Below, in pieces: positions 1 through 29,560 of a stretch of 29,624 bases of DNA. The stretch covers positions 8,843,233 through 8,872,856 of the forward strand of contig NW_002060943.1 of the NCBI RefSeq assembly GCF_000150275.1, given 5' to 3'. Made by a program: the position numbers and the translations under genes. Source of the stretch: Trichoplax adhaerens. Its lineage: Eukaryota > Animalia > Placozoa. Under the pieces are notes generated by a model, which did no database searches, was not told where the DNA came from, and saw only the letters and a list, made by a program, of their open reading frames with translations. Position 1 is the stretch's first letter. Every line of letters starts with the position of its first letter.

Positions 1-1039
1 GGTGAATAGTATAAAATCCACTGGTTAAATGATAATATCAAGATTGAAACACTAATCTAGAACTCCAACGATTTGACAGCGACATGAACAAATGTACGTA
101 CAGTACTGTCCCCAAATTTTATTACAGTCGTTGTCGCCTGCTATCAATTAATGCGAGCAGCAGCAGCAGCATCAGTATCAGTCTCTATTGCGTCAGCAAT
201 GAATAGAAAGCTCTTAGTCTAACCTAATTGCAAAAGCACGAATTATGGAGAACGCAATATACGTCCATGACAGTAACATACTACTTGAATTTGGGATTAA
301 AAAAGAAAGCACCTTTTGTTTTACATGCATGCATTGTATTTCAGTGATATATCATAGCTCTCTTCACTTCATCATTAGGACATTGCAGCAAGAATGTTTT
401 TGCTATCGTACTATAAGCAATCCATGTAAAAAATAAAAAGCGAATACCCTCCATTCTATTATTAGGCTGTTGAGAAGCAGGAAATCGCTGACTCGCTCTA
501 TGCTATTTGGTAATTTCCATCAAGATATAAAAGCATAGCGAAAAATCAAACCGTAATACCGTTAATGCCAGTACTGGCATTTGTCTTAAACTAACAGTAA
601 ATACAATAACCTCCATGATTCAAAATAAGATCCTACGTGTCTTGATACATGTAAAGAATCGGATGCGGTCGCATCGTAATTGGAGTATAATACCGTCAAT
701 AATAACCAAATTGTACATATCGGTAACGGCATTGAAAATCTTCTTTAAAAAAAGAGTACTGTAACAAGCCAATTTTACTTTTACAGCTACAATTGTATCG
801 CTATTTCTGTGATACTAACCGCCAAGAATCAAAATCTTTGGTTTGTTGCAGTCTTGCATGGTAGACCAAGCTACTTTCAGAGTTGAATGTTAATTTCGAC
901 ACTGTTGTGTTAGGGCATAAACTGAACCGAGTTGGCGATATTTCGATTTGATTATTTTGAGCTTGATTTCTATTCAAACATGCTGTACAGTATGTAGAGT
1001 ACAAGTATCGAATTTTTCATATCAGATTCAGGGCCAAGC

Positions 1040-3034: not shown

Positions 3035-6974
<3,940 letters not shown>

Positions 6975-8119
6975 TTGAAAAATACTCTATACAATTGTAC
7001 ATGGTAACCATTTGTATTATGTAGCAGACTTATTTATTGCGTTTTTACGGTTATCAGGCTTGCTGCTGTATATTAGAGTGGTATGTTACAGTTTTAGTAA
7101 GGTGACAAAAACAGACATCAACAGGTTGTAGTAGTATTTATGCAATAGAACGACTAACAAATTTAATTGGATGAATAAATGAGGTATCTGTTATTAGTTT
7201 CCATGCATGTGGCTTTGTAACAGTATATCATTCTTTATGAAACGATGGCAACTGCAAAGTATGAAGCAGCAGAATCCGTAGGTCACATTCACTTACAATG
7301 CAATTCTAACTTTTATTCAGAATTAGGAGTAGTGTCGCATAGCCAAAAAAAAGTAGTACTAGGAAGTAGATCTAATTGTTTACGTGTATTAGAGGTCTGG
7401 TATTTGGGTTAAGCGACGACAAAGAGTTACTGGCATACGTACAATGTGTGTTGTTAACAACAATATGACATATACAGTACAGTAGTGTATGCTTGAATTC
7501 AGCGTCATCAAATAAAATTTAATTTAATATACTAGGAGTCAATATCGGTGGTATACCGTACACTATAGACTATCATCATTTGCATCATATCGATGTAAAT
7601 TTACAATGAACAACGCTGCAGTAAATATTCATGTGAGAATATTAGCTTGATCGAGGTAGCCCTCCCTTCAGGCTATACGCGTACTGTTCAGAAGCTGAGC
7701 TCTCTTTACTAAATGTTGCAGCTAAAATATCTTACACTGGATTGTGCCGAGTGCTAATTACATCCTGCTTGCTGTCTAGCTATAAGCTGGGGAAAAATGA
7801 TATCTATCTGCTTTAATACCACATTCTTATTGATTGACAGGTTAACTTGTAAATCCCTCTAGGCTGTCATTCACTTTGTATACTGCACTGAGTAGTTTTA
7901 TAAAATGGTTGGTTTGATAACTTAGCGATCTGCACTATACTGTACAGTTATTGCAGCATAGCAATTGCCAGTAAACAATGTGATCTCTTTGTTACACCAA
8001 GATTCTACGGCATACAGCTTTTTTATCGATACATCTGTAACAGCTCTGTTGTGTATTAAATAACGAACCTTCTGTCAGTGATGGACTTTCCACTTCATCC
8101 ATGCTGGCTTGTGATTTTG

Positions 8120-8175
8120 TGGGGGGGCTAGCATTTAGCATCTAGCATTTAGCAATAGCATTTAGCTTGCTAGAG
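8120..8175. repeat. G-tract (gtgggggggc) followed by a (TAGCATT)n-like tandem: gctagcatttagcatctagcatttagcaatagcatttagcttgctag
   Basis: Read directly. Confidence 0.7.
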
Positions 8176-8204
8176 GAGGAGGAGCACACGAGGATTTACA
8201 ATTT

Positions 8205-8360
8205 AGAGTACAAGTACTTTACAGTACAATGTACTGTGAAGGTATACAGTACCAACCCGTACTGTACTGTACCGTACTTTGTATTGTAGACGTTATTACA
8301 GGCCCACTATCAATCTATTGTACTGTACAGTCTACTGTACTGTAATAGTACTGTAGTAAT
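8205..8360. repeat. (GTACA/TACAG)n palindromic satellite patch just upstream of the TEP1-like start
   Basis: gtacaagtactttacagtacaatgtactgtgaaggtatacagtacc...gtactgtactgtaccgtac...tgtactgtacagtctactgtactgtaatagtactgtag. Confidence 0.8.
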
Positions 8361-8563
8361 AATAACACTGGTGTGTGTCATTGAAATGACGTAATTTACT
8401 GAGAGTAAAGTGAAGTGAATTCATTACACTGACGCTTGCCGTCTGAGTGGTACTGTACGACTCGTATCAAGCGGTCGGTATCCACGCAACCTATCTGCTG
8501 TGTCGGCGATCAAAATAAGATGGACGTTCTTTTTCGCCTATGAAAATCTCAATATAACCAACT

Positions 8564-8717
8564 ATGTCTGAAAGTAAAGCGAATACTAGTGGAAGTTCAT
8601 TGACTGCTAATAGGAATCTGTTGAGTACAACTGGTGTTGGACTTGATAGCGGCAGTTCCACAGCATTATCGAGTAATCTATTGTCCACAAAGTCTACTCT
8701 ATTGACCACCGTTGAAG
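8564..8717 (+). CDS. TEP1: TEP1-like exon 1: MSESKANTSGSSLTANRNLLSTTGVGLDSGSSTALSSNLLSTKSTLLTTVE(A)
   Basis: This is the first in-frame ATG. Its 51 codons plus 1 nt phase correctly into the acceptor at 9027-9028 (ccatacag|cc). An untranslated upstream exon cannot be excluded. Confidence 0.6.
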
Positions 8718-11700
8718 GTACTGATTGAGATACGAGTTAATGGAACATGCAATACTTTCCATTTATCACATAGTATGTAGTTAGAAAGATACTAGACGAT
8801 CTTATGAAATAGTTGCTTTCTATCCATGATAAATAATAATTAAACAATGTATCCGTAATTCTTTATAACGAATATTTTAGAGATTACAACGTCTAATAGC
8901 ATCGTCTAGTAACGCCTTTGCGCTAGAGCTTATAAATAAAACAAGGATACCTTTGAAGTCTTGGATCCAACATCATAATAGGATAATGCAATAGACTGAT
9001 TGCTTGATTTTATTATATTTCCATACAGCCAGACAAAGTCGCCAAAATGCAGCTATGGCGAAATCACATCCAACACCGATGAGCAATCTGTATTCATTGG
9101 CTAATCCTAATCTTAAATTTACCAGTTTAGGTGGTACTCCACAAAGTATGCATGTATCCACGATCAGTTCAACCATGAAGGTAAATACTGAATTGAATAA
9201 ATTAACTCATCCTACACCTGCAGTTGCCAACTTATCACAGCAAAATAACTGGACCATGGGACAGTCAACTGCAGCGAAGAAAACTAATTTATTAAGCTCA
9301 AATATGAACAAGCGTCACTGTAGCGGTCACGCTTTAACCAACTATCAATTGCAACAAAGTACCAGTATTAAACCGAAAACGCTTAGGACTCTCTCCAGTA
9401 TAGATAATACTAAGAGCCAAATTGGTGATGTTACCATTGGGAAACAAGTTACCAATGATGATCAAATATTAAATGATCGATTAAGGTTATTATCTTCTCA
9501 TACAGTTCATACCTACTTATTATTAAGGATAGTGATAGATAATAAATGGTATAATACCTTAAATTGCGCCGTCAACATTATATTATGATATCAAATTAAT
9601 TTCTATAATATAAAAACAGTGATATTAAATATATATATATATATAAATATATTTATATTCTCTATCTTAAGCTAATTGGTAATGTCAGTACTACAGTAAT
9701 ATGATCGATTAAATGGTGTTGTTGTATTAGTTCAATGATGTACGTACACTTTAACCTATATTTAGGAAATCCAAAATTAATCAGTAAAATTACGGTCAAT
9801 GTGCATTGCTGCATATCGAAAATTTGGCCCAAAGTGATTATTTTATTTTTTACATTTTCATGCCTCCTTCGATAGCAACGTTGTCGACGAAGAAGAAATG
9901 ATTCCAACTCCGGAATACGATCTTAAGGATTGGAAAAGCACCTCTGAAGATGATTTTGACGCAGAGGATCATATGGAAAAGCTCTATGCACCACCCAAGA
10001 CTAGTTCAGATATTAGTAACTTGAAGGTTATATTCCCTTTTTATCGCTTAACCTTTGCTTACCGTTATAGAAATAAATCGCATGTCAGTCTACTACAGCA
10101 CAGCGTATGTCAATAATAAATAAATATACCAACACTATACTATACTGTATATAGCCATTAATATCAATTTTTTTTAATTTTCTAGAAATGCTTAATCAAC
10201 GCTGCTTCCTCGTCATTGATTGGCTCTCCTGATTTTAAAAGTAGAAAAGATTTCACCAGGCGGCAGCTGAAATTTTTAGCTAACAAAATCCAGATTTATG
10301 ACCCAGAATTCATTCTTAAAGTACGTCTTACATATATTGTATCCCTACTCAAACTGCTCTCTACCTATCAACTCAACTATTAATACACGCCATCGAATAT
10401 GTCCTATAATGACTGTTATACAACAGATCTAAAATGCGTAATATATTATTACATAATTTTGCTTAAATGCTATATTACAAAAATAATCTAAGGTCCTTTT
10501 TAAATTTCTTTGAAGGTTTCGTTGTATACACGCCAAGAGTTAGGAATACGTACTGCTGCTAATTTCTTATTGGCACTGGCAGCTAACATTCAAGCTTGTA
10601 GACCTTATCTGAAGAAATACTTTTCTACAATAATTAGACTACCATCGGACTGGATTGAAGTTGCCGAATTATACCAGGTACAATAATCTCGTATAATTAT
10701 GCGAAATATTATTTTCAGACTATTATACTGTACGTGCAATATTATGTTTTCTGATTTTTATCCGTAATAAATTTCTATTCTATTTTTAATCCTGGCCCTC
10801 TTGAAATTAGTCACTACATGATAAAACTATAAGGATAGGATCTTTACCTAAGGCTCTACGGAAGGTCATGGTAGATAAATTCGGTGGCTTTGACGAATAT
10901 CAGTTGGGTAATGCTATAGATTAGGATGTAGTAATATACAAAAATTCTCAGATAATATAATTGTAATATAACAGTACGCTTGTGTATATATTTGATAGCT
11001 AAATATAATAGACAAAAGAGAAAAAAATCAAGCCAGAATAAGAAAACGGATAAAACTTCACAGTTGGATCAAGCGGAATCAAATAATTACGCCTCAGAAT
11101 TCAACGATATTATTTTCAGTGATGACTCCGAAGACGAAGAAGAAACAGTTCAAATGATGTTTACCTTAAAACAGTTAATTCGAAAATTGCATATAATCCA
11201 GCCAGCTGAACATGTTATGGCATTAATTGGAAAAAAGTAATATATACAGTAGATTGCGAGCACATGTAACACTGTAGTAAAAGTAAATAATAGAATCAGT
11301 TTTACTGTTGTAAATTTTTTCTGTAACTACATAATAATCTGTGATACCTGTCCACTAGATATCCTGTAGACTTAGAAAGTTTTCATAAGAGTGGCTTGTC
11401 TGGTATTTGGAATTCGGTAAGACACTTTCTTATTCTTGTTAATTATGTAACATATAATATGCATAAATTACTTATTCATGAATATTACATATACACGTAA
11501 CAGGAACGAGCTAACAAGCGAATGAAATTACCAGTTCCTGAAACTTGGGAAACGCAGTTATCATTGCATGGTAATAAAGCTTCAACATGGGAAACTCTAA
11601 TTGGTAAGTCATTAAGATTAGCCACAGGACATATACGTTACCTTAGTTTACAGCATCTTTGCATAATATGACACTAATGGCATTCATGTTTAGTGCAATG

Positions 11701-14700
11701 CGTAATCACTTAGCAACACCTATGTGATCAATTTTGTGATTATTTTAGAGCACCAGAAGTTACCATTTATAGCCACTTTAAGGAATTTAAGAAATCTAAT
11801 TAAGGCTGGGATCAGCGACAAGCATCATAACCGGATTATTCGTAGACTTGAAAATGAAGTAAAGAGTATTTTATCCCCTTGTTTATATACAAATTATTCA
11901 CGAAATAACGGATTTCAATTAAAATAATGTTGATTGATACCTGATTGGTTAACTGATTAATTTTTAGAATTCAGTTATCAACAGCAAATTATTCCCTTTT
12001 CGTTTCTTTACGGCTTTTGAAGCTATCAATGGATATGAAAAGACGTCGCAAGGTATAGTTATTTACGTCCTCAAAATTTATCTACGATACTGAAATATCT
12101 AACGGCTGTTATCAGAGATATAAGTGTCTTTTGGGATAATGGTTCTTATTTATTCATATACATTTTTGTTGGCAAATATTTTGAAGCTGGAGAATCTGGT
12201 AATCGCTTTAACAGGAAGTTTAAAAAATCAAATACGAAAAAAAAGAAACAGGTTGAGATGTAAGTAGATGTTGGTAATCTGTTTAACTAGCATTGCTGAA
12301 TATGAATAAAAATTACTTTTTAACTTCACCTTTAGGCAAAAAACGGTTTCTGAAGCGCTTCTCAAACGATACAGGGAAGCATTAGATAATGCTGTAAAGG
12401 TAGCTACAAATCACAACGTTGCTCCTATTTGTGGCTCAACCCTCATTTTATGTAATGTTGCTGACGTGATGAAGATTCCTTGTACTGCAGCAAGAGGTCT
12501 TGGTAAACCTAGAACGGTAAATTTACCTTATCACGAATTCTTTAAGCTTCATCATAAGCGTTTACCAAATAGGTAATCTGCTTACCACTATGATTGCTGA
12601 TGAGATATCTGTACTTTATTAGTTGCTAGAAGTTGGCATTTTGTTAGGCTTAATGTTCAGATACTCCTGCGAACAGTCTGAATTCATCATTTATGCTGAT
12701 AACTGGAAAAAGATTGACGTATTCAACACTAATAGCATTCTTGAAAATACCGAGTCTATCTGCACGCTAGTTGAAGTTAGTGAATATCACACGTTCTTAT
12801 TTTAATACCCCTAACAGTATAATTGTATACAGCAATGATGTCGATATCTTTCTTTGATTTTACTACAAAGAAATCAATGATCACTACAAGTCCAAACGGA
12901 TTCCCTGAACAAGAAATGCTGAAATATCTTAAAGACCGAATTCAGGTGTTTAGCAAGCCATTCATAGTCTTTTTATAGATGAGCTATATTTATTTAATAC
13001 GCTGTCGTTTATTTTCAAACGATACTATTTGGCTATTGTAGCTTGACAACCTCATTCTCCTTTCGAATGGATCAAGCGAAGTGCCTAATCACAGCGTTAT
13101 GAATAGTTTTCTAACCAAATATAGAAGAGTAGTAAATCCGAATCTACTTTACGTTAATGTGAATTTAAGCGGAAAAGTAACTGGGTGAGTTATATATATT
13201 TAAATGCAGTCAGTATTGCAATCTTAATCATTAACATAATAATTCGATATATTCTTACTGTTTATAGATTTGATAGAAATAAGAAACTCAGCCATGAAAA
13301 TGATGTTTACGTTACTGGGTTTAGCGACCAAATCTTAAAGTTAGTACTTTATAGCCAATATTATTATACTAAAATTGAATTCCTTTGTTGATGTCAGTAC
13401 TTCCTGTTAATAAGTATACTGCTTACCATAATTATTATTCATACTACTAAATTTTTAAGTAAAGTCGAAACTTTTGATGCGTTTTCAGTCGTTCAGAAAT
13501 TACTTTGCATCTACAATAAAATATTATTTTTATTCATCATTATAAAAAGAAATAGCTTTATTATGTTGTATTTGTCTAAATTTATTATTTAGAAATATTT
13601 ACATCTGCTTTTTATACGTATACGTATTTTATAATAGATTTGTGGCTGATAGAGGAGGGGATGGACAGTTAATCAACGTGGAGAATATTGATAATGCTTA
13701 TAAACTGAAATCTATCAAGATACCTAATGTAATAGGGTTTTTAATGAATAAAAGTAGATCTGAAAAGCTCTCTTGCTAATGTAATATCATTATCTTATAA
13801 TTTGATCAGGCTATCTCAAGTGTTGATAAAAGTGAGGACAAATCGTATGGTATCGGAACTTTTGATATGTTTTTACCAAGGTCTTTAAAATCTGTCTTTA
13901 CGATAATTCTGCATTATCAGCTCCATAGATCATTCCCGAAACTACAACATTCTGATGTAAATTCCCTACATTTTTAGGTGGAAAACCGTTCGTGTTTTCA
14001 TATCATCTACGTTCTTAGATATGCATGGTGAAAGAGATATTTTAACAAGGTATGTTTTTCCGGAGTTACGCGCAAGATGCCAGCGTCATTTTCTGAATAT
14101 TTTTGAAGTGGACCTTCGTTGGGGTATCAACGAAGCTGACATACAACATAATAGGTAAAATTTAAATACAAGCGTTATAATAAATATAGTAGTAGCAAAT
14201 TAAAAGATAGTATACAAATACTGAATTAATTCATCAATTTTTGTTTACAGTATGCTCGAATTATGTTTAACTGAAGTCCAACGAAGTGATTATTTTATTG
14301 CTATACTTGGTCAACGATATGGTTGGTGCCCTAAAGAGTATGAAGTTCCACCAACTAGCGAATTTGATTGGGTAAGAAACTATCCGCCAAATAGGTCGGT
14401 GACCGAGCTAGAAATCCAACAAGCTATATTCAATAACCCATCCGAAGCAATTCGAAAATGCTTTTGTTATATCAGAGATAACACTTTTGAGAGGTAAGCA
14501 GATAATGAAATGTTTTATCAATTTATGATCTCTGCTTATGTTACAAACGATAAACTCTTACACATCGTCGCAATATCGATCTTAGATTTCTGTTCTTAAT
14601 TAACTGGATCTAATATAGTTTTTCATTTTTCCGTTCTAAGTGATATACCTAAGAACTGGCTATTACAATTTGTCGATGATTCTGATATTGCAAAGGAGAA

Positions 14701-24689: not shown

Positions 24690-27600
24690 CTAGAGAAAGG
24701 CATACACAACTTATTAATATACAGTATAGTCATCCATGCAATCTTCAGGGTTGTTAAAATACTAGATTCACTCTTGCTTCAATCTTAAACTTGCCTGCTT
24801 CAATCTAAATTGTGATGCAAACCGTCCAGCAGTATTTCTGATTAAGCTACCAAAGGAAAAGAAACTGCCGCCATACCTTTAACAAAATGTACAAATTTTA
24901 GTCATAATTATAAACATTCCCTTGATTCGAATACTAGTAAACATCATATAATGTATAAGATTTTACGTTTTCCTAATATATGCCCAATTAGCACGAACGA
25001 AGTCCCATGCGAGAGGCCTGCCAACCAAGTTATTGGCAATGTAACCAATAACAACAGTAGAATCTTGGGAACGAACTTTAGCAGGATCAATGGACCACCT
25101 TAAGTACCTACAAACAGTTCAATAATTTTTTGAATGTTTAGTGTACGAGAATTAAGTTAATTAATCATTGCAATTGGTAAATCCATCATCAGAAGTCACA
25201 ATGTACCTATTCAGAATCCACGGTTCCTTTGAATATGACAAAGCATCTAATATAGTTCGTTTTTCGGAAGCGACATTCGTTTTATAGAAGTAATTATACA
25301 GGAAATCCCACTCTGCGATACCTCCATTAGCTATACCAAAACGGTATACAACCGCCTTCAAGTTCGGTTTTACGCTAATGTTGAATAGACGATTGATCTC
25401 ACTATCCCCGCTTTGCAAAAAGTCACCTTGACTATGCAAGTATTCTGTATTTCCAGGTAAAATTAAATATCAACATTAACTTACGCATTATTTGTGGGGT
25501 CCGCCATAAAGCGACGGAAAAGCAAAGTTGCATTATCTAAACATGGCTTGTATCCAAATCCACAACCAATAGTTAAGGCCGACATACGCAATAATCTGAT
25601 TAAATTTGATGGCTTATATCAATTATTGAAATTATGGTAATTTTATAATTTTAAGGTAGTAATTAGTATGTTCAGTTTTTAAAGCTTACTATTAATACAT
25701 AATTATAGTAAAAAGTTAAAAATACTCACTTCTGAGTATGACTCCCTTTGTCTTCAAAGCCAATCGTGTCCAATAAAGGCTTTAATTGCTTCAAGTAATA
25801 TTGCTAAATAATAGGGTATATAAATAAAAGCTCATAATAAGCTTATCACATTCATAATGTGAGATTATTTTATTATAGTTGTATAATTAAATATATGCGT
25901 CTAAGTATACATATCTGTCATTTACACTAACCGAAAAGTAACCGTAGGATGAACGATATGATATGATGGATCCAATAGCGCCAAGTACAGAGTTTGCAGT
26001 CCTCCAAGGAACATAGCTTCTTTCTTTCGTAAGATACTTTGTTGTGCCAAATGCGATGTCGAGTACTTGGAGACTTCAAGGGTTCATTATAATTATCGAT
26101 CAGTCCCTTATTACCTTGCAAGATTAAAAGCGTCATCAAGTAGATTGGAGAAATCTCTTTTTGATAATGCCTGTCACGCATACGGAAAGCAACGATCAGT
26201 ATTTCATGAATATTTCAATACGTTATAAGCACATATGTCAAACACTATAAAATCAATCAACATTTTTTAAATGCACGCCATCATTATTGGAAAAACTTAC
26301 CGGTTGTGTTTTCTGCATTTCCTGGATGAGGAGATTCCAATTACTTACTGGATAGTTAACTCGGTAATAGCCATAAGCATCTTTGTTGGCCTTCAGCCAA
26401 GTACCAGCTGGCCAAGCTATATTGAGAGCTATTTAGGAATTTAAAATTACATAATTACCAAACTTGTTGTAAAGTACAAAATACTCACACACAACATTAG
26501 ATTTTAGATCGCTACAGTACTTGCAAAATACTTTTAATCTATCTAACTATTTATAATCCACATATGCATGAACGTAGCTTACTGGAACTCATGTTAACCA
26601 TTGCACTTCGAATTGTGTTCGGCGAATTTCCAAGAATGTATTTAAGCGGGATATTCCACTTGTATCTATTAATTTAAAGCAATTAGCCAAGTCTAGCTTT
26701 CTGATAAGCTTACGCGGATCAAATTTTATTCATCTTTAATAAATGTAATTAGAGATACTACTAATAATAAATAAATATTATCATACCCATAGGGTGACCT
26801 GAATTTTGAGGTTGCTGGATCAACCTCGGGATTTTTATTATTGGGATCCAACAAGAAACGTTTTTGTGAGAGTCGAGCTTGAGAACCTGTATTCGTGATA
26901 GTAACGACAGGAAATCCCATTTGCAGTGTCCAAGTATCCATAACATCAGTAACATTTATCCTGTAAGAAATGGCCTTAAATGTTGCCATAATAATTCGAT
27001 CAATGATGTGCTACGGGCAATTAACTACAGAACTTTATGATAGTGCTTGTAAATCATTAATATACATATCCGATTAAATTTTACCTCCGATAAAGTTTGC
27101 CAAAGATCTCGAGTTACAGCATTCCGATATTCGAATTTTTTTAAGTATCTCTACATTTAAGAAAAGTAAACGTACGATAAAGAGATAATCTAAAAACTTT
27201 TAAGCCATCAATGTGCAATCAGTTTTAGAATATATGTCATACCGAAATGCCATTCTTGAAATCCAAATTACCCATCATATCTCTCATCATTCTAATGATC
27301 GATGCACCCTACATTATAATTAAAAGATTACTTACTAACTTCTATTACAGTACCAACGTTTCAAAAAAATTAAAATATCCACAATTCAAAAATAGGTTTC
27401 AAAGAGAACAGACCTTCGCGTAAGAAATTGTGTCGAAAACTTCATTAATTTCGTCGGGATGATAAACAGTAACTTGGACAGGATGTGAAGTTACAAATGC
27501 ATCCAAAGAGAAGGCGCGCTGTACGTCGATAGGTACAAATTGATCGAGCTATTCAAACAAAGAGCACAACAATTGTAAATTTTTAGCAATATAAAACTAT

Positions 27601-29103
27601 AGGGAAATCACGTATTATCTATCCACTGTGGTGATCATCATTCTCTAATTATTGGGGAAATTTAAAATTATGTATTACCATTTCCCATGTAGGTTGATAA
27701 TGATCAGTGCCGAGATATTCCATGAAACTAGCAAAGCCTTCGTTAAGCCAAAGATCATCCCACCACTTCATAGTGACTAAATTACCAAACCACTACATGT
27801 TCAAATAGAAATTGAATAACTTAGTTCACAACAAGAGAGTAACGTAGGAGCTCATATCAATAATTTTTATTAACCATATGAGCCAATTCATGAGCCACTA
27901 CATAAGCAACACGTTGCTGATTGTTAGCTGCAGAGACATTTGGATCATATAATAAAGCAGTTTCGCGATAGAGAATTAAACCCCAATTTTCCATGGCCCC
28001 AGCAGCAAAGTCAGGAACTGCTACCATGTCTATTAGTTATTAAGGTGGCGATAGGTATCAAGCGATTAGCAAAGCAAGAATAATGAAATGTATCAAACAG
28101 CAAACTAATTACCGCATTATCAAGCATTACCTTGTTTCGGCAATGGGAAAGGAATACCGAAAAAATCTTCGAAGTAATCAGTTATATTAACACCACCAAT
28201 TAAAGCGAAATTGCCCTGATTGATAGTATCGGTAGTTGCCCAAACCCTTATCTAGATCCAATTTTAGTAAAATTTAGCTCCGCTGAGAAATTTTTAATTA
28301 ATTTTAAATTGTATAAACAGGCAACATGAAACATAAAGCTGTTTACTATTTATGTTAACATACCGGTACTCTGTTTTTGGTCATCATTTCGATGTAAGTA
28401 AAATCGGCTAACACAAATGCAAGTAAGTACGAACTCATCCTAACACTGGCTGTAATAAATTGAAATATCGATCGTTAAGTACAGTTTCTATTTTAACAAT
28501 AATAAAACAACGTATGCAAAGACTGAAATTTAATTACCAGGCTACATCAATGGTCAATGTATCAAGGTGACAATACAACCTGCAAAGTCTTTCTTTGTAC
28601 TGTACTACGCTAGATATGAAGTATCGTTCACTAAACTTACTGTTGTAGTCATATCTTCTAAAACCAGGGCGATTAGGTATTGTAACATTTCTTTGAATTG
28701 GCATATTCCATAGAACGCTCGTATAATTTGATTGAGTAATGATTGTTGCTGTAAAATTGGCCTTCAATTCAGGCTCATCAAAGAGAGGTATAATCTTACG
28801 TGCGTCAGTTGGTTGACATTGGCTAGCTGCGATATTTCTAAATTGGAAAAAATAACATTGCATAAAATTTTAGAAATGCAACAAATTTACTTCACAATTG
28901 TTAGGATTTACAGCAACACATTGACGTAACGATTGCTTCCCCCTCAATTTTTTTTTGAATTCCGTCATTTCGATACTCGATTAACAAATTTAAAGTAACC
29001 TATCGTGCCGTTCGCATTCGCAACCCTACCCATCAAATACGACATAAGTAATTTCCCCTGCTTTAAAATAAACTCCATATCTAAAAATGAAGAGCCGCTT
29101 GTG
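24546..29103 (-). CDS. Gene span of an M1-family zinc aminopeptidase (aminopeptidase N / ERAP / PSA-like). It is multi-exon. The 5' exons were not found and are probably beyond 29103 or off-window.
   Basis: GAMEN and HEXXH-X18-E motifs. The exons are collinear with ERAP1/APN from the FYRS.Y...ARK..PCFDEP region through the C-terminal ERAP1_C-like domain to the stop. Confidence 0.9.
24795..24876 (-). CDS. Aminopeptidase exon: (T)[27 protein letters not shown], followed by a GC-AG intron
   Basis: Matches ERAP1 ELGSSSIAHMVMGTTNQFSTRTRLEEV. The only frame-preserving donor is gcaagt (GC at 24794-24793 on the minus strand). Confidence 0.7.
27679..27792 (-). CDS. Aminopeptidase exon: [38 protein letters not shown]
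   Basis: Carries the third zinc ligand, Glu in LNEGFA, exactly 18 residues after HELAH. It is 38 codons, in phase 0. Confidence 0.9.
27875..28029 (-). CDS. Aminopeptidase catalytic exon: [52 protein letters not shown]
   Basis: GAMEN exopeptidase motif and HEXXH zinc-binding motif. Both are hallmarks of gluzincin M1 aminopeptidases. Confidence 0.95.
28364..28449 (-). CDS. Aminopeptidase exon: (T)[28 protein letters not shown]
   Basis: Matches the conserved MSTYLLAFIVSEFDYVE block of M1 enzymes. Confidence 0.85.
28641..28826 (-). CDS. Aminopeptidase exon: (A)[61 protein letters not shown]
   Basis: Matches TQFEPTdARkaFPCFDEPa.KAtF.itl, the S1 pocket region of M1 peptidases. Confidence 0.85.
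29000..29103 (-). CDS. Aminopeptidase exon: (x)[34 protein letters not shown](A). This is the most upstream exon I can identify.
   Basis: Collinear with PSA/ERAP tGtL.idF.Ge..dkmkGFYRS.Y region. About 100-150 N-terminal residues must lie further upstream. Confidence 0.6.
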
Positions 29104-29149: not shown

Positions 29150-29560
29150 TGGTGTTGACAACGCTAAACCGTAGTACAGTACAGTATAGTGAATTATTTA
29201 CAGTACAGTACTTTGCGCGATTGTAATTTCGAAACTGGCCAATCAAATTCAGCTTCCAATTTACGTCACAGAGAGGCTGATTTGATAGATTGTTATTCCG
29301 TCGAGGACACGTTTCCTGTGGTCATGTAACCAGCATTCGGTGCGCACTTTTTAGAGCTCCAGTAGTAGGAAAAGGATTACAGCACGGTACTGTACACTGA
29401 GTGTACAGTACGGGCCTCATTTTAGAGCTCCAGTAGTACAGTACAGTACTGTACAATCATAGACTACTACAGTACAGTACTATATGTACAAAAAACACTG
29501 TAGACTGTAGTCCATGGTACTGTACTGTACAGTACAGTACAGTACTGTAAAAAAGACTTC
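29150..29560. repeat. (GTACA/TACAG)n palindromic satellite block with an embedded ~70-bp higher-order unit. The 19-mer ttttagagctccagtagta occurs at 29349 and 29420.
   Basis: tgtactgtacagtacagtacagtactgtaaaaaa (29521-29554) and many shorter runs, read directly. Confidence 0.85.

Follow-up and report, generated by a model that had tools for sequence, protein, structure and literature searches.

What does Trichoplax adhaerens encode in the stretch of DNA examined here? The window, by which we mean the whole of the 29,624 nucleotides that were analysed, has a eukaryote-like character: about 33% GC, with short stop-free stretches set between AT-rich spacers. When the open stretches of the plus strand between positions 8564 and 23648 are crudely concatenated, Pfam recognizes TROVE (E ~1e-100), DUF5920, DUF4062, NACHT and WD40, together with both of the propeller families that bear the name of TEP1 (telomerase protein component 1, also vault p240), a minor vault protein that is also associated with telomerase. 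TEP1 is described as a component of vaults in metazoa and amoebozoa (PMC3762200). The question is whether these pieces belong to one gene or to two neighbours, and whether the product keeps the NADase activity of its human counterpart. Our answer to the first part is that 8564-23648 is very probably one gene, intact and subject to purifying selection, namely the placozoan orthologue of TEP1; the second part calls for more caution. We begin with the gene model.

Gene model

The final model (model 5) is a dynamic-programming gene model, refined with a profile of homologues and with two orthologous contigs. The gene finder worked with codon log-odds, fixed GT-AG PWMs, consistent phases and a lower limit on exon size, gave a frame-specific bonus for homology, and returned a first chain of 58 exons. 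A TEP1 profile built from 18 homologues served to remove three stretches of retained intron from this chain (exons 8, 9/10 and 12) and to re-set its last exon. For exons 18, 19 and 37, the boundaries first chosen differed from those conserved in one of the contigs, L002, and the conserved ones were adopted. A self-trained version of the gene finder, which cut the region into 135 micro-exons, was dropped as over-split.

The two contigs come from independent assemblies: L002 from Logan (SRR30664516, 12,143 bp) and L001 from ENA (ERZ27263980 k141_468340, 3,921 bp). Their DNA is 81% identical between them, and that of L001 about 69% identical to the window; at the protein level both are some 75-78% identical to the TEP1 of the window. 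They appear to stand for two further placozoan-like lineages, met in environmental or SRA data, at a level of divergence which, going by published placozoan distances, would fit different placozoan genera.

The model runs from ATG to TAG over 57 exons of 44-457 nt. Its coding sequence of 7,725 nt, stop codon included, gives a protein of 2,574 aa. The introns are short (64-390 nt, median 110), and all 56 of them are of the GT-AG type. The donor consensus is AG/GTAAGT, a T-rich tract stands ahead of the acceptor AG, and exons have 37.6% GC versus 28.2% in introns, figures that were taken on model 4 and change negligibly in model 5. Homologues aligned by tblastn gave 867 HSPs within 8500-23700, every one on the plus strand. 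The initial annotation, which saw here an AT-rich, invertebrate-like genome (it is placozoan), had placed both ends of the gene exactly. Its single-strand, phase-consistent chain for one protein of 'about 2,500 aa' agrees with the present length; its 'forty-plus' exons and some 44 introns were too few.

Comparative support covers exons 1-42. All 39 exons that could be tested in L002 (4-42) have the same length there, with AG..GT at both ends, and not a single stop interrupts 1,692 codons, at 75.2% amino acid identity. The 13 exons covered by L001 (16-28, linker exons included) likewise keep length, frame and AG..GT boundaries, free of stops. Exons 1-3 are collinear in L002 but fast-evolving, with amino acid identities of 56%, 39% and 72%. 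Exons 43-57 rest on Pfam and on the alignment of homologues, and here two junctions, 45/46 (20805/20870) and 53/54 (22507/22597), are uncertain by about 10-15 aa. A scan of JGI metagenomes for an orthologous C-terminal contig brought back one unrelated WD protein, 21% identical. Shorter alternative isoforms of TEP1 may also exist.

The gene is complete, as seen from its conserved MSE.. start with an in-frame stop upstream, from the match to the C-terminal propeller family that reaches its stop codon, and from the different, unrelated genes that bracket it, each of them on the opposite strand (Table 1). An ATTAAA poly(A)-like signal is found beyond the stop, at 23662.

Table 1. Features of the window (positions counted from its first nucleotide; exons and residues numbered as in model 5)
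Feature	Residues	Position and exons	Strand	Basis or remark
PRMT3-like gene		~3830-6990	-	N-terminal C2H2 zinc finger, then SAM-dependent arginine-methyltransferase core
Initiator ATG		8564-8566	+	In-frame TAA 6 nt upstream, 8555-8557; MSE.. start kept in L002
S/T/N-rich low-complexity N-terminus	1-244	8564..9996; exons 1-3: 8564-8717, 9029-9485, 9876-10026	+	No Pfam family
TROVE domain	245-638	9997..12429; exons 3-13	+	Pfam PF05731, E=1.6e-103, profile positions 11-440 of 442
TROVE exons 4-13		10186-10320, 10516-10677, 10811-10907, 10999-11236, 11359-11416, 11504-11603, 11749-11858, 11968-12052, 12187-12259, 12336-12516	+	
DUF5920 / vWA-like module	671-839	12632..13710; exons 14-18: 12623-12775, 12871-12945, 13042-13184, 13268-13339, 13638-13728	+	Pfam PF19334, E=3.9e-8
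Linker, TROVE half to STAND half	840-869	13711..13978; from the end of exon 18 through exon 19 (13810-13880) to the first base of exon 20	+	Splice sites conserved
DUF4062 / TIR-like NADase domain	870-1086	13979..14959; exons 20-23: 13978-14154, 14251-14493, 14641-14754, 14842-14968	+	Pfam PF13271, E=3.5e-15
SVTELE motif with E982		14396..14413	+	E982 equivalent to human catalytic E1008
NACHT NTPase core	1126-1262	15187..15948; exons 24-27: 15079-15255, 15342-15511, 15595-15745, 15928-16203	+	Pfam NACHT, NPHP3_N, AAA_22
Walker A P-loop GKKGCGKT	1138-1145	15223..15246	+	Read from sequence; GKsGCGKT in L002, GKnGCGKT in L001
Walker B-like IIFIDGLDQ	1228-1236	15662..15688	+	Read from sequence; IIVIDGLDQ in L002, ILIIDGLDQ in L001
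Winged-helix and APAF1_C-type helical domains	1263-1640	15949..18011; exons 27-35	+	APAF1_C, weak HTH_NWD1
Exons 28-35		16326-16458, 16567-16762, 16900-17012, 17105-17193, 17272-17386, 17464-17528, 17733-17776, 17888-18065	+	
WD40 array, first part		18039..19876; exons 35-42	+	Matches to Pfam WD40 and propeller families; in L002 same exon lengths, with AG..GT; pN/pS 0.22
Exons 36-42		18351-18446, 18535-18659, 18810-18959, 19097-19208, 19321-19440, 19527-19625, 19714-19876	+	
WD40 array, second part		20131..23648; exons 43-57	+	Beta-prop_TEP1_2nd (aa 1965-2211), Beta-prop_TEP1_C (aa 2502-2572)
Exons 43-50		20131-20219, 20389-20534, 20678-20805, 20870-20976, 21086-21223, 21382-21511, 21640-21698, 21776-21898	+	
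Exons 51-57		21996-22081, 22188-22263, 22362-22507, 22597-22716, 22854-23166, 23311-23415, 23529-23648	+	
Stop codon TAG		23646-23648	+	Beta-prop_TEP1_C match reaches profile end just ahead of it
M1-family aminopeptidase gene		24549-28869	-	GAMEN and HELAH motifs; Peptidase_M1 6e-60, ERAP1_C 2e-43

Domain architecture and family identity

The modules follow one another on one chain: low-complexity N-terminus, TROVE, DUF5920/vWA-like module, linker, DUF4062/TIR-like domain, NACHT, winged-helix and APAF1-type helical domains, WD40 array. This is the order of TEP1. The initial annotation had recognized TEP1 in the succession TROVE, DUF4062, NACHT and WD40, and an HMM search of the conceptual protein matched the domains that it listed; it had overlooked the DUF5920/vWA-like module and the APAF1-type helical domain.

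The matches are all far beyond chance. TROVE is covered almost from end to end; its exon boundaries are kept in L002 (pN/pS 0.22). The module directly after it scores 33.6 bits for PF19334 against a cut-off of 27 and is conserved in both contigs. NACHT proper (PF05729) passes narrowly, with 26.8 bits for a cut-off of 26.7 (E=5e-6), and NPHP3_N more easily (34.3 bits versus 24.8, E=3e-8). In the helical region, where the exon boundaries are again those of L002, APAF1_C is matched at aa 1489-1616 with E=3.4e-8 and HTH_NWD1 weakly. The WD40 array makes up the last 900 or so residues (about aa 1650-2574). It contains the families that are specific to TEP1: PF25047, Beta-prop_TEP1_2nd, at 177.7 bits (cut-off 89, E=3e-52), and PF25048, Beta-prop_TEP1_C, which extends to the C-terminus, at 167 bits (cut-off 32, E=9e-50).

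The closest named relatives in the databases, in a one-directional search, are all called 'telomerase protein component 1' and are 39-49% identical to the Trichoplax protein. They are invertebrate models (Plakobranchus, Elysia, Branchiostoma, Solemya, Stegodyphus), collinear with it from TROVE to the WD array; these come from bilaterians and many are partial, whereas the present gene is placozoan. Human TEP1 (2,627 aa) is of similar size and shares with it TROVE, the DUF5920/vWA-like module, the DUF4062/TIR-like domain, NACHT, the helical region and a WD40 array with TEP1-specific propellers, as well as the catalytic glutamate and the Walker motifs. Identity to primate fragments is, however, only about 30%, and the Trichoplax gene, with its 15 kb and its 110-nt median intron, is very compact when compared with the mammalian one.

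The N-terminus is another difference. Mammalian TEP1 begins with the TEP1_N 30-aa repeats (PF05386), whereas Trichoplax has an unrelated S/T/N-rich region, and a Pfam scan of aa 1-244 for that family came out empty. PF05386 is confined to the mammalian entries among the database relatives listed, and is therefore lineage-specific rather than family-defining. The residues that occupy the position of the mammalian repeats (8564-9996) keep short, recurring NLLS[TS]-like motifs: NRNLLSTTG, SSNLLSTKS and TNLLSSNMN.

More distant systems share parts of this design. APAF-1 likewise combines a STAND NTPase with an effector domain, a helical domain and sensor propellers of the WD40 type; it differs by its CARD effector, its NB-ARC NTPase and its lack of an RNA-binding module. 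According to the literature, the bacterial antiphage NADase Swarozyc (KpSwz) and the bNACHT/Avs proteins have in common with TEP1 the TIR-like DUF4062 fold, the catalytic glutamate and an NAD+ depletion that depends on oligomerisation, in an architecture and a cellular context wholly unlike those of the Trichoplax protein. The initial annotation had invoked kinship with prokaryotic Avs/bNACHT proteins. A direct PADLOC scan of the protein did not detect it: no bNACHT or Avs model was matched, with marginal hits to PDC-S27 in the P-loop region (E=3.4e-5) and to AriA (9.4e-4), so that the idea is a matter of literature.

The TIR-like domain and the NADase question

DUF4062 is a family of TIR-like NADases, active in human TEP1, which hydrolyses NAD+ and NADP+ inside vaults, where it is located on their central axis, at shoulder level. 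E1008 is catalytic, R908 and R976 contribute to the reaction, and activity increases with protein concentration (10.64898/2026.05.01.722283, a 2026 preprint).

The Trichoplax domain matches the structure of the human one (PDB 11gz_A, 'Telomerase protein component 1') over the entire 220-residue chain, with E=1.8e-62. We mapped the human active-site residues through a gorilla fragment that carries human numbering. The catalytic E1008 corresponds to E982, invariant in the 14 TEP1 sequences aligned; the SVTELE motif around it is also that of L002 and L001. R976 corresponds to R950, again invariant in the TEP1 alignment. By contrast, of the three arginines that line the active site in the human protein, two have given way to other residues: R908 to L882 and R954 to S928. 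In the comparison with L002, constraint on the protein is strongest in the TIR-like and NACHT cores, with pN/pS of 0.15 each. Because the catalytic glutamate and the equivalent of R976 are kept, and because these cores are the most constrained, the domain is likely to be a functional NADase.

There is another way to read these replacements. The gene might be a true orthologue of TEP1 and yet have, in placozoans, a TIR-like domain of weak or no catalytic activity, used chiefly for oligomerisation or as a scaffold. Among the mechanistic alternatives this is the principal one. All three placozoan-like sequences have L882 as a fixed residue; the R908A mutation lowers the TIR activity of human TEP1, and its human paralogues NWD1, NWD2 and NPHP3 display no NADase activity in vitro (10.64898/2026.05.01.722283). 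The effect of R908A implies that NADase activity in Trichoplax TEP1 could be weak, or regulated differently. Against a domain reduced to a scaffold stand two invariant active-site residues and a constraint that is the strongest in the protein. Furthermore, leucine occupies the R908 position in three other non-vertebrate TEP1s, so that this position is variable within the family, and R954 falls within the variable BB loop. We regard a weak or inactive domain as rather unlikely.

What might the protein do? By homology to mammalian TEP1, its TROVE half would bind a small, structured RNA, that of vaults and/or of telomerase, and would help to position the protein inside MVP vaults. RNA binding, residence in vaults and NADase activity are results obtained with human TEP1, for which a switch model is only a proposal (10.64898/2026.05.01.722283). 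Trichoplax is reported to encode MVP, the Major Vault Protein, and vault, Y and telomerase RNAs are not known from it (PMC2655684). That placozoan TEP1 would be an active, signal-gated STAND switch, housed in vaults and depleting NAD+, is a tentative proposal, possible rather than probable. Were it true, the fusion of TROVE, TIR-like, NACHT and WD40 modules and its NADase function would already have been present in a lineage that branched off early among animals, such as Placozoa; an experimentally simple animal, with few cell types and a compact gene, could be used to learn what vaults sense, and the TROVE domain could become a bait for placozoan vault and telomerase RNAs.

Some consequences are closer at hand. 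In placozoans the entire TEP1 fusion, with the catalytic glutamate of its TIR-like domain, is conserved under strong purifying selection, which supports an early-metazoan origin of the vault-associated NADase. In addition, given the reported MVP, a defined TROVE module provides a handle for finding the vault or telomerase RNA of Trichoplax.

One gene or two

Could a gene finder have chained two adjacent genes, a TROVE-only gene of the Ro60/p80 kind (8564 to about 13400) and an NWD1-like DUF4062-NACHT-WD40 gene (13978-23648)? Both halves have stand-alone counterparts. TROVE-only proteins of about 650 aa occur in many eukaryotes (P0051-P0067 among the database matches, for example), and NWD1 has DUF4062, NACHT and WD40 without TROVE (10.64898/2026.05.01.722283). 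Moreover, the linker between the halves is poorly conserved, with 47% amino acid identity and a pN/pS of 0.73.

The details of the junction speak against such a split. Exons 17, 18, 19 and 20 are spliced in frame: in the model GFSDQILK/FVADRGGDGQLINVENIDNAYKLK... is followed, after some 25 linker residues, by RWKTVRVFISSTFLDMHGERD, and the translation tracks the consensus of homologues almost residue for residue. Exon 18, past the proposed point of separation, thus encodes the TEP1-specific FVADRGGDGQLINVENIDNAYKLK, which is that consensus, only about 25 residues ahead of RWKTVRVFISSTF. Between the halves there is neither an in-frame stop nor an exon that begins with ATG, and a mere 250 nt or so of non-coding DNA; with exon 18 ending at 13728, exon 19 at 13810-13880 and exon 20 starting at 13978, no room is left for a terminator and a promoter. 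The splice sites of the linker (AAT/gtaata and gatcag/GCT) are those of L002 and L001, and in these two diverged relatives the linker exons have exactly the same length and phase. A weakly constrained segment that keeps length and phase is as expected of a flexible tether, and this is how we would interpret the linker.

Homologues lead to the same reading. In many of them a single chain includes both halves. The profile of 18 homologues gives an alignment of one domain, at 1,635 bits, from the N-terminal region ahead of TROVE into the WD array, and spider TEP1 gives a single HSP over aa 440-2300. The propeller families of the WD array are specific to TEP1 and are not those of NWD1.

Comparison with the would-be neighbours tells where the likeness ends. 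Ro60 (TROVE2), Tetrahymena p80 and other TROVE-only proteins have the same RNA-binding module of TROVE and a vWA-like domain (PDB chains of TROVE domains match the Trichoplax protein weakly, E=1.3e-4). They are, however, stand-alone proteins of about 500-700 aa, whereas the Trichoplax frame goes on from TROVE and vWA, through the conserved linker exons, into DUF4062-NACHT-WD40. NWD1, NWD2 and NPHP3 similarly have DUF4062 beside a NACHT NTPase. An APAF1-like helical domain goes with these, as do WD40 repeats in NWD1 and NWD2, and the Trichoplax protein matches NPHP3_N and HTH_NWD1. Yet all three proteins lack TROVE, which in Trichoplax is joined in frame upstream of DUF4062, and the WD propellers of Trichoplax belong to the TEP1-specific families.

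Two separate genes, the outcome that the initial annotation had named as fatal to its proposal, therefore failed at the level of sequence, and we consider them very improbable. On the evidence of the reading frame and its relatives, 8564-23648 is one gene, predicted to place the TROVE and STAND halves on a single polypeptide.

Selection, and absence from placozoan protein sets

That single gene has left little trace in protein resources. Word-indexed searches, with the TROVE-NACHT part as query and then with the N-terminal and WD parts, returned no placozoan TEP1. Neither did exon 27 when it was searched exhaustively against 1.84 billion representatives, where the best match was a 92-aa ORF fragment from a metagenome, 85% identical. 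The only close matches to any exon of the gene are such fragments, 92-94 aa long, on metagenome or SRA contigs (P0229, P0398). A length limit of about 2,000 aa was ruled out as the reason, as proteins of 2,300-3,100 aa were returned. In a literature search, no description of a placozoan TEP1 was found. In the placozoan protein sets searched, TEP1 thus appears to lack an annotation, which suggests an annotation gap in the reference placozoan proteomes.

An exon-level model of TEP1 for Placozoa, an early-branching animal phylum, with exons 1-42 checked comparatively, fills this apparent gap. The family and its architecture are not new, with orthologues widely annotated in animals, and what is known of the TEP1 family is unchanged by this gene.

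Might the gene instead be missing because it is a decaying, non-functional copy, all the more since the product of the adjacent Trichoplax gene does occur in the resources searched? This is barely credible in the face of a 7.7-kb coding frame unbroken over 57 exons with canonical splice sites, of catalytic and P-loop motifs intact in three lineages, and above all of the selection signature, dN/dS being 0.117 at a dS of about 1.2 against L002, with a strong bias towards the third codon position (310, 188 and 670 mismatches at the first, second and third), which in our estimate effectively refutes a pseudogene. Identity to L002 is 77% in exons and 53% in introns. This signature agrees with the frame of the model, and it counts as a further line of evidence for one gene rather than two.

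Genomic neighbourhood

Within the window (1-29624, both strands), Rfam reported no family at gathering score, hence neither vault, Y or telomerase RNA nor another known small RNA beside TEP1; a tRNA scan was empty, and a tandem-repeat scan found nothing associated with the TEP1 gene.

Downstream, an M1-family aminopeptidase gene is placed tail-to-tail with TEP1, the two stop codons lying about 900 bp apart. Its best match is Trichoplax adhaerens TRIADDRAFT_20166, with clean exon HSPs that are 96-100% identical, an orthologue or the same gene; its 5' end may extend past 28869. This degree of identity assigns the window to T. adhaerens or to a lineage almost identical with it, hence to a placozoan. 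Upstream, a PRMT3-like gene stands head-to-head with TEP1. The two have in common an upstream region of about 1.6 kb (6990-8563), which may be a bidirectional promoter.

Repeats are met in several places. There are tandem arrays with a 70-bp unit (2.8 copies, 1157-1358) and with a 39-bp unit (2496-2576). Short tandem repeats of the GTACAGTACT type are found at 1098-1131, 1737-1859, 8202-8235 and 29517-29549, and more generally around 900-2100, that is, at sites that include the DNA just upstream of the TEP1 start and the end of the window. They read '...YCTVQYSTV...' in several frames and on both strands, and have the look of a microsatellite or repeat element that is dispersed and specific to this genome.
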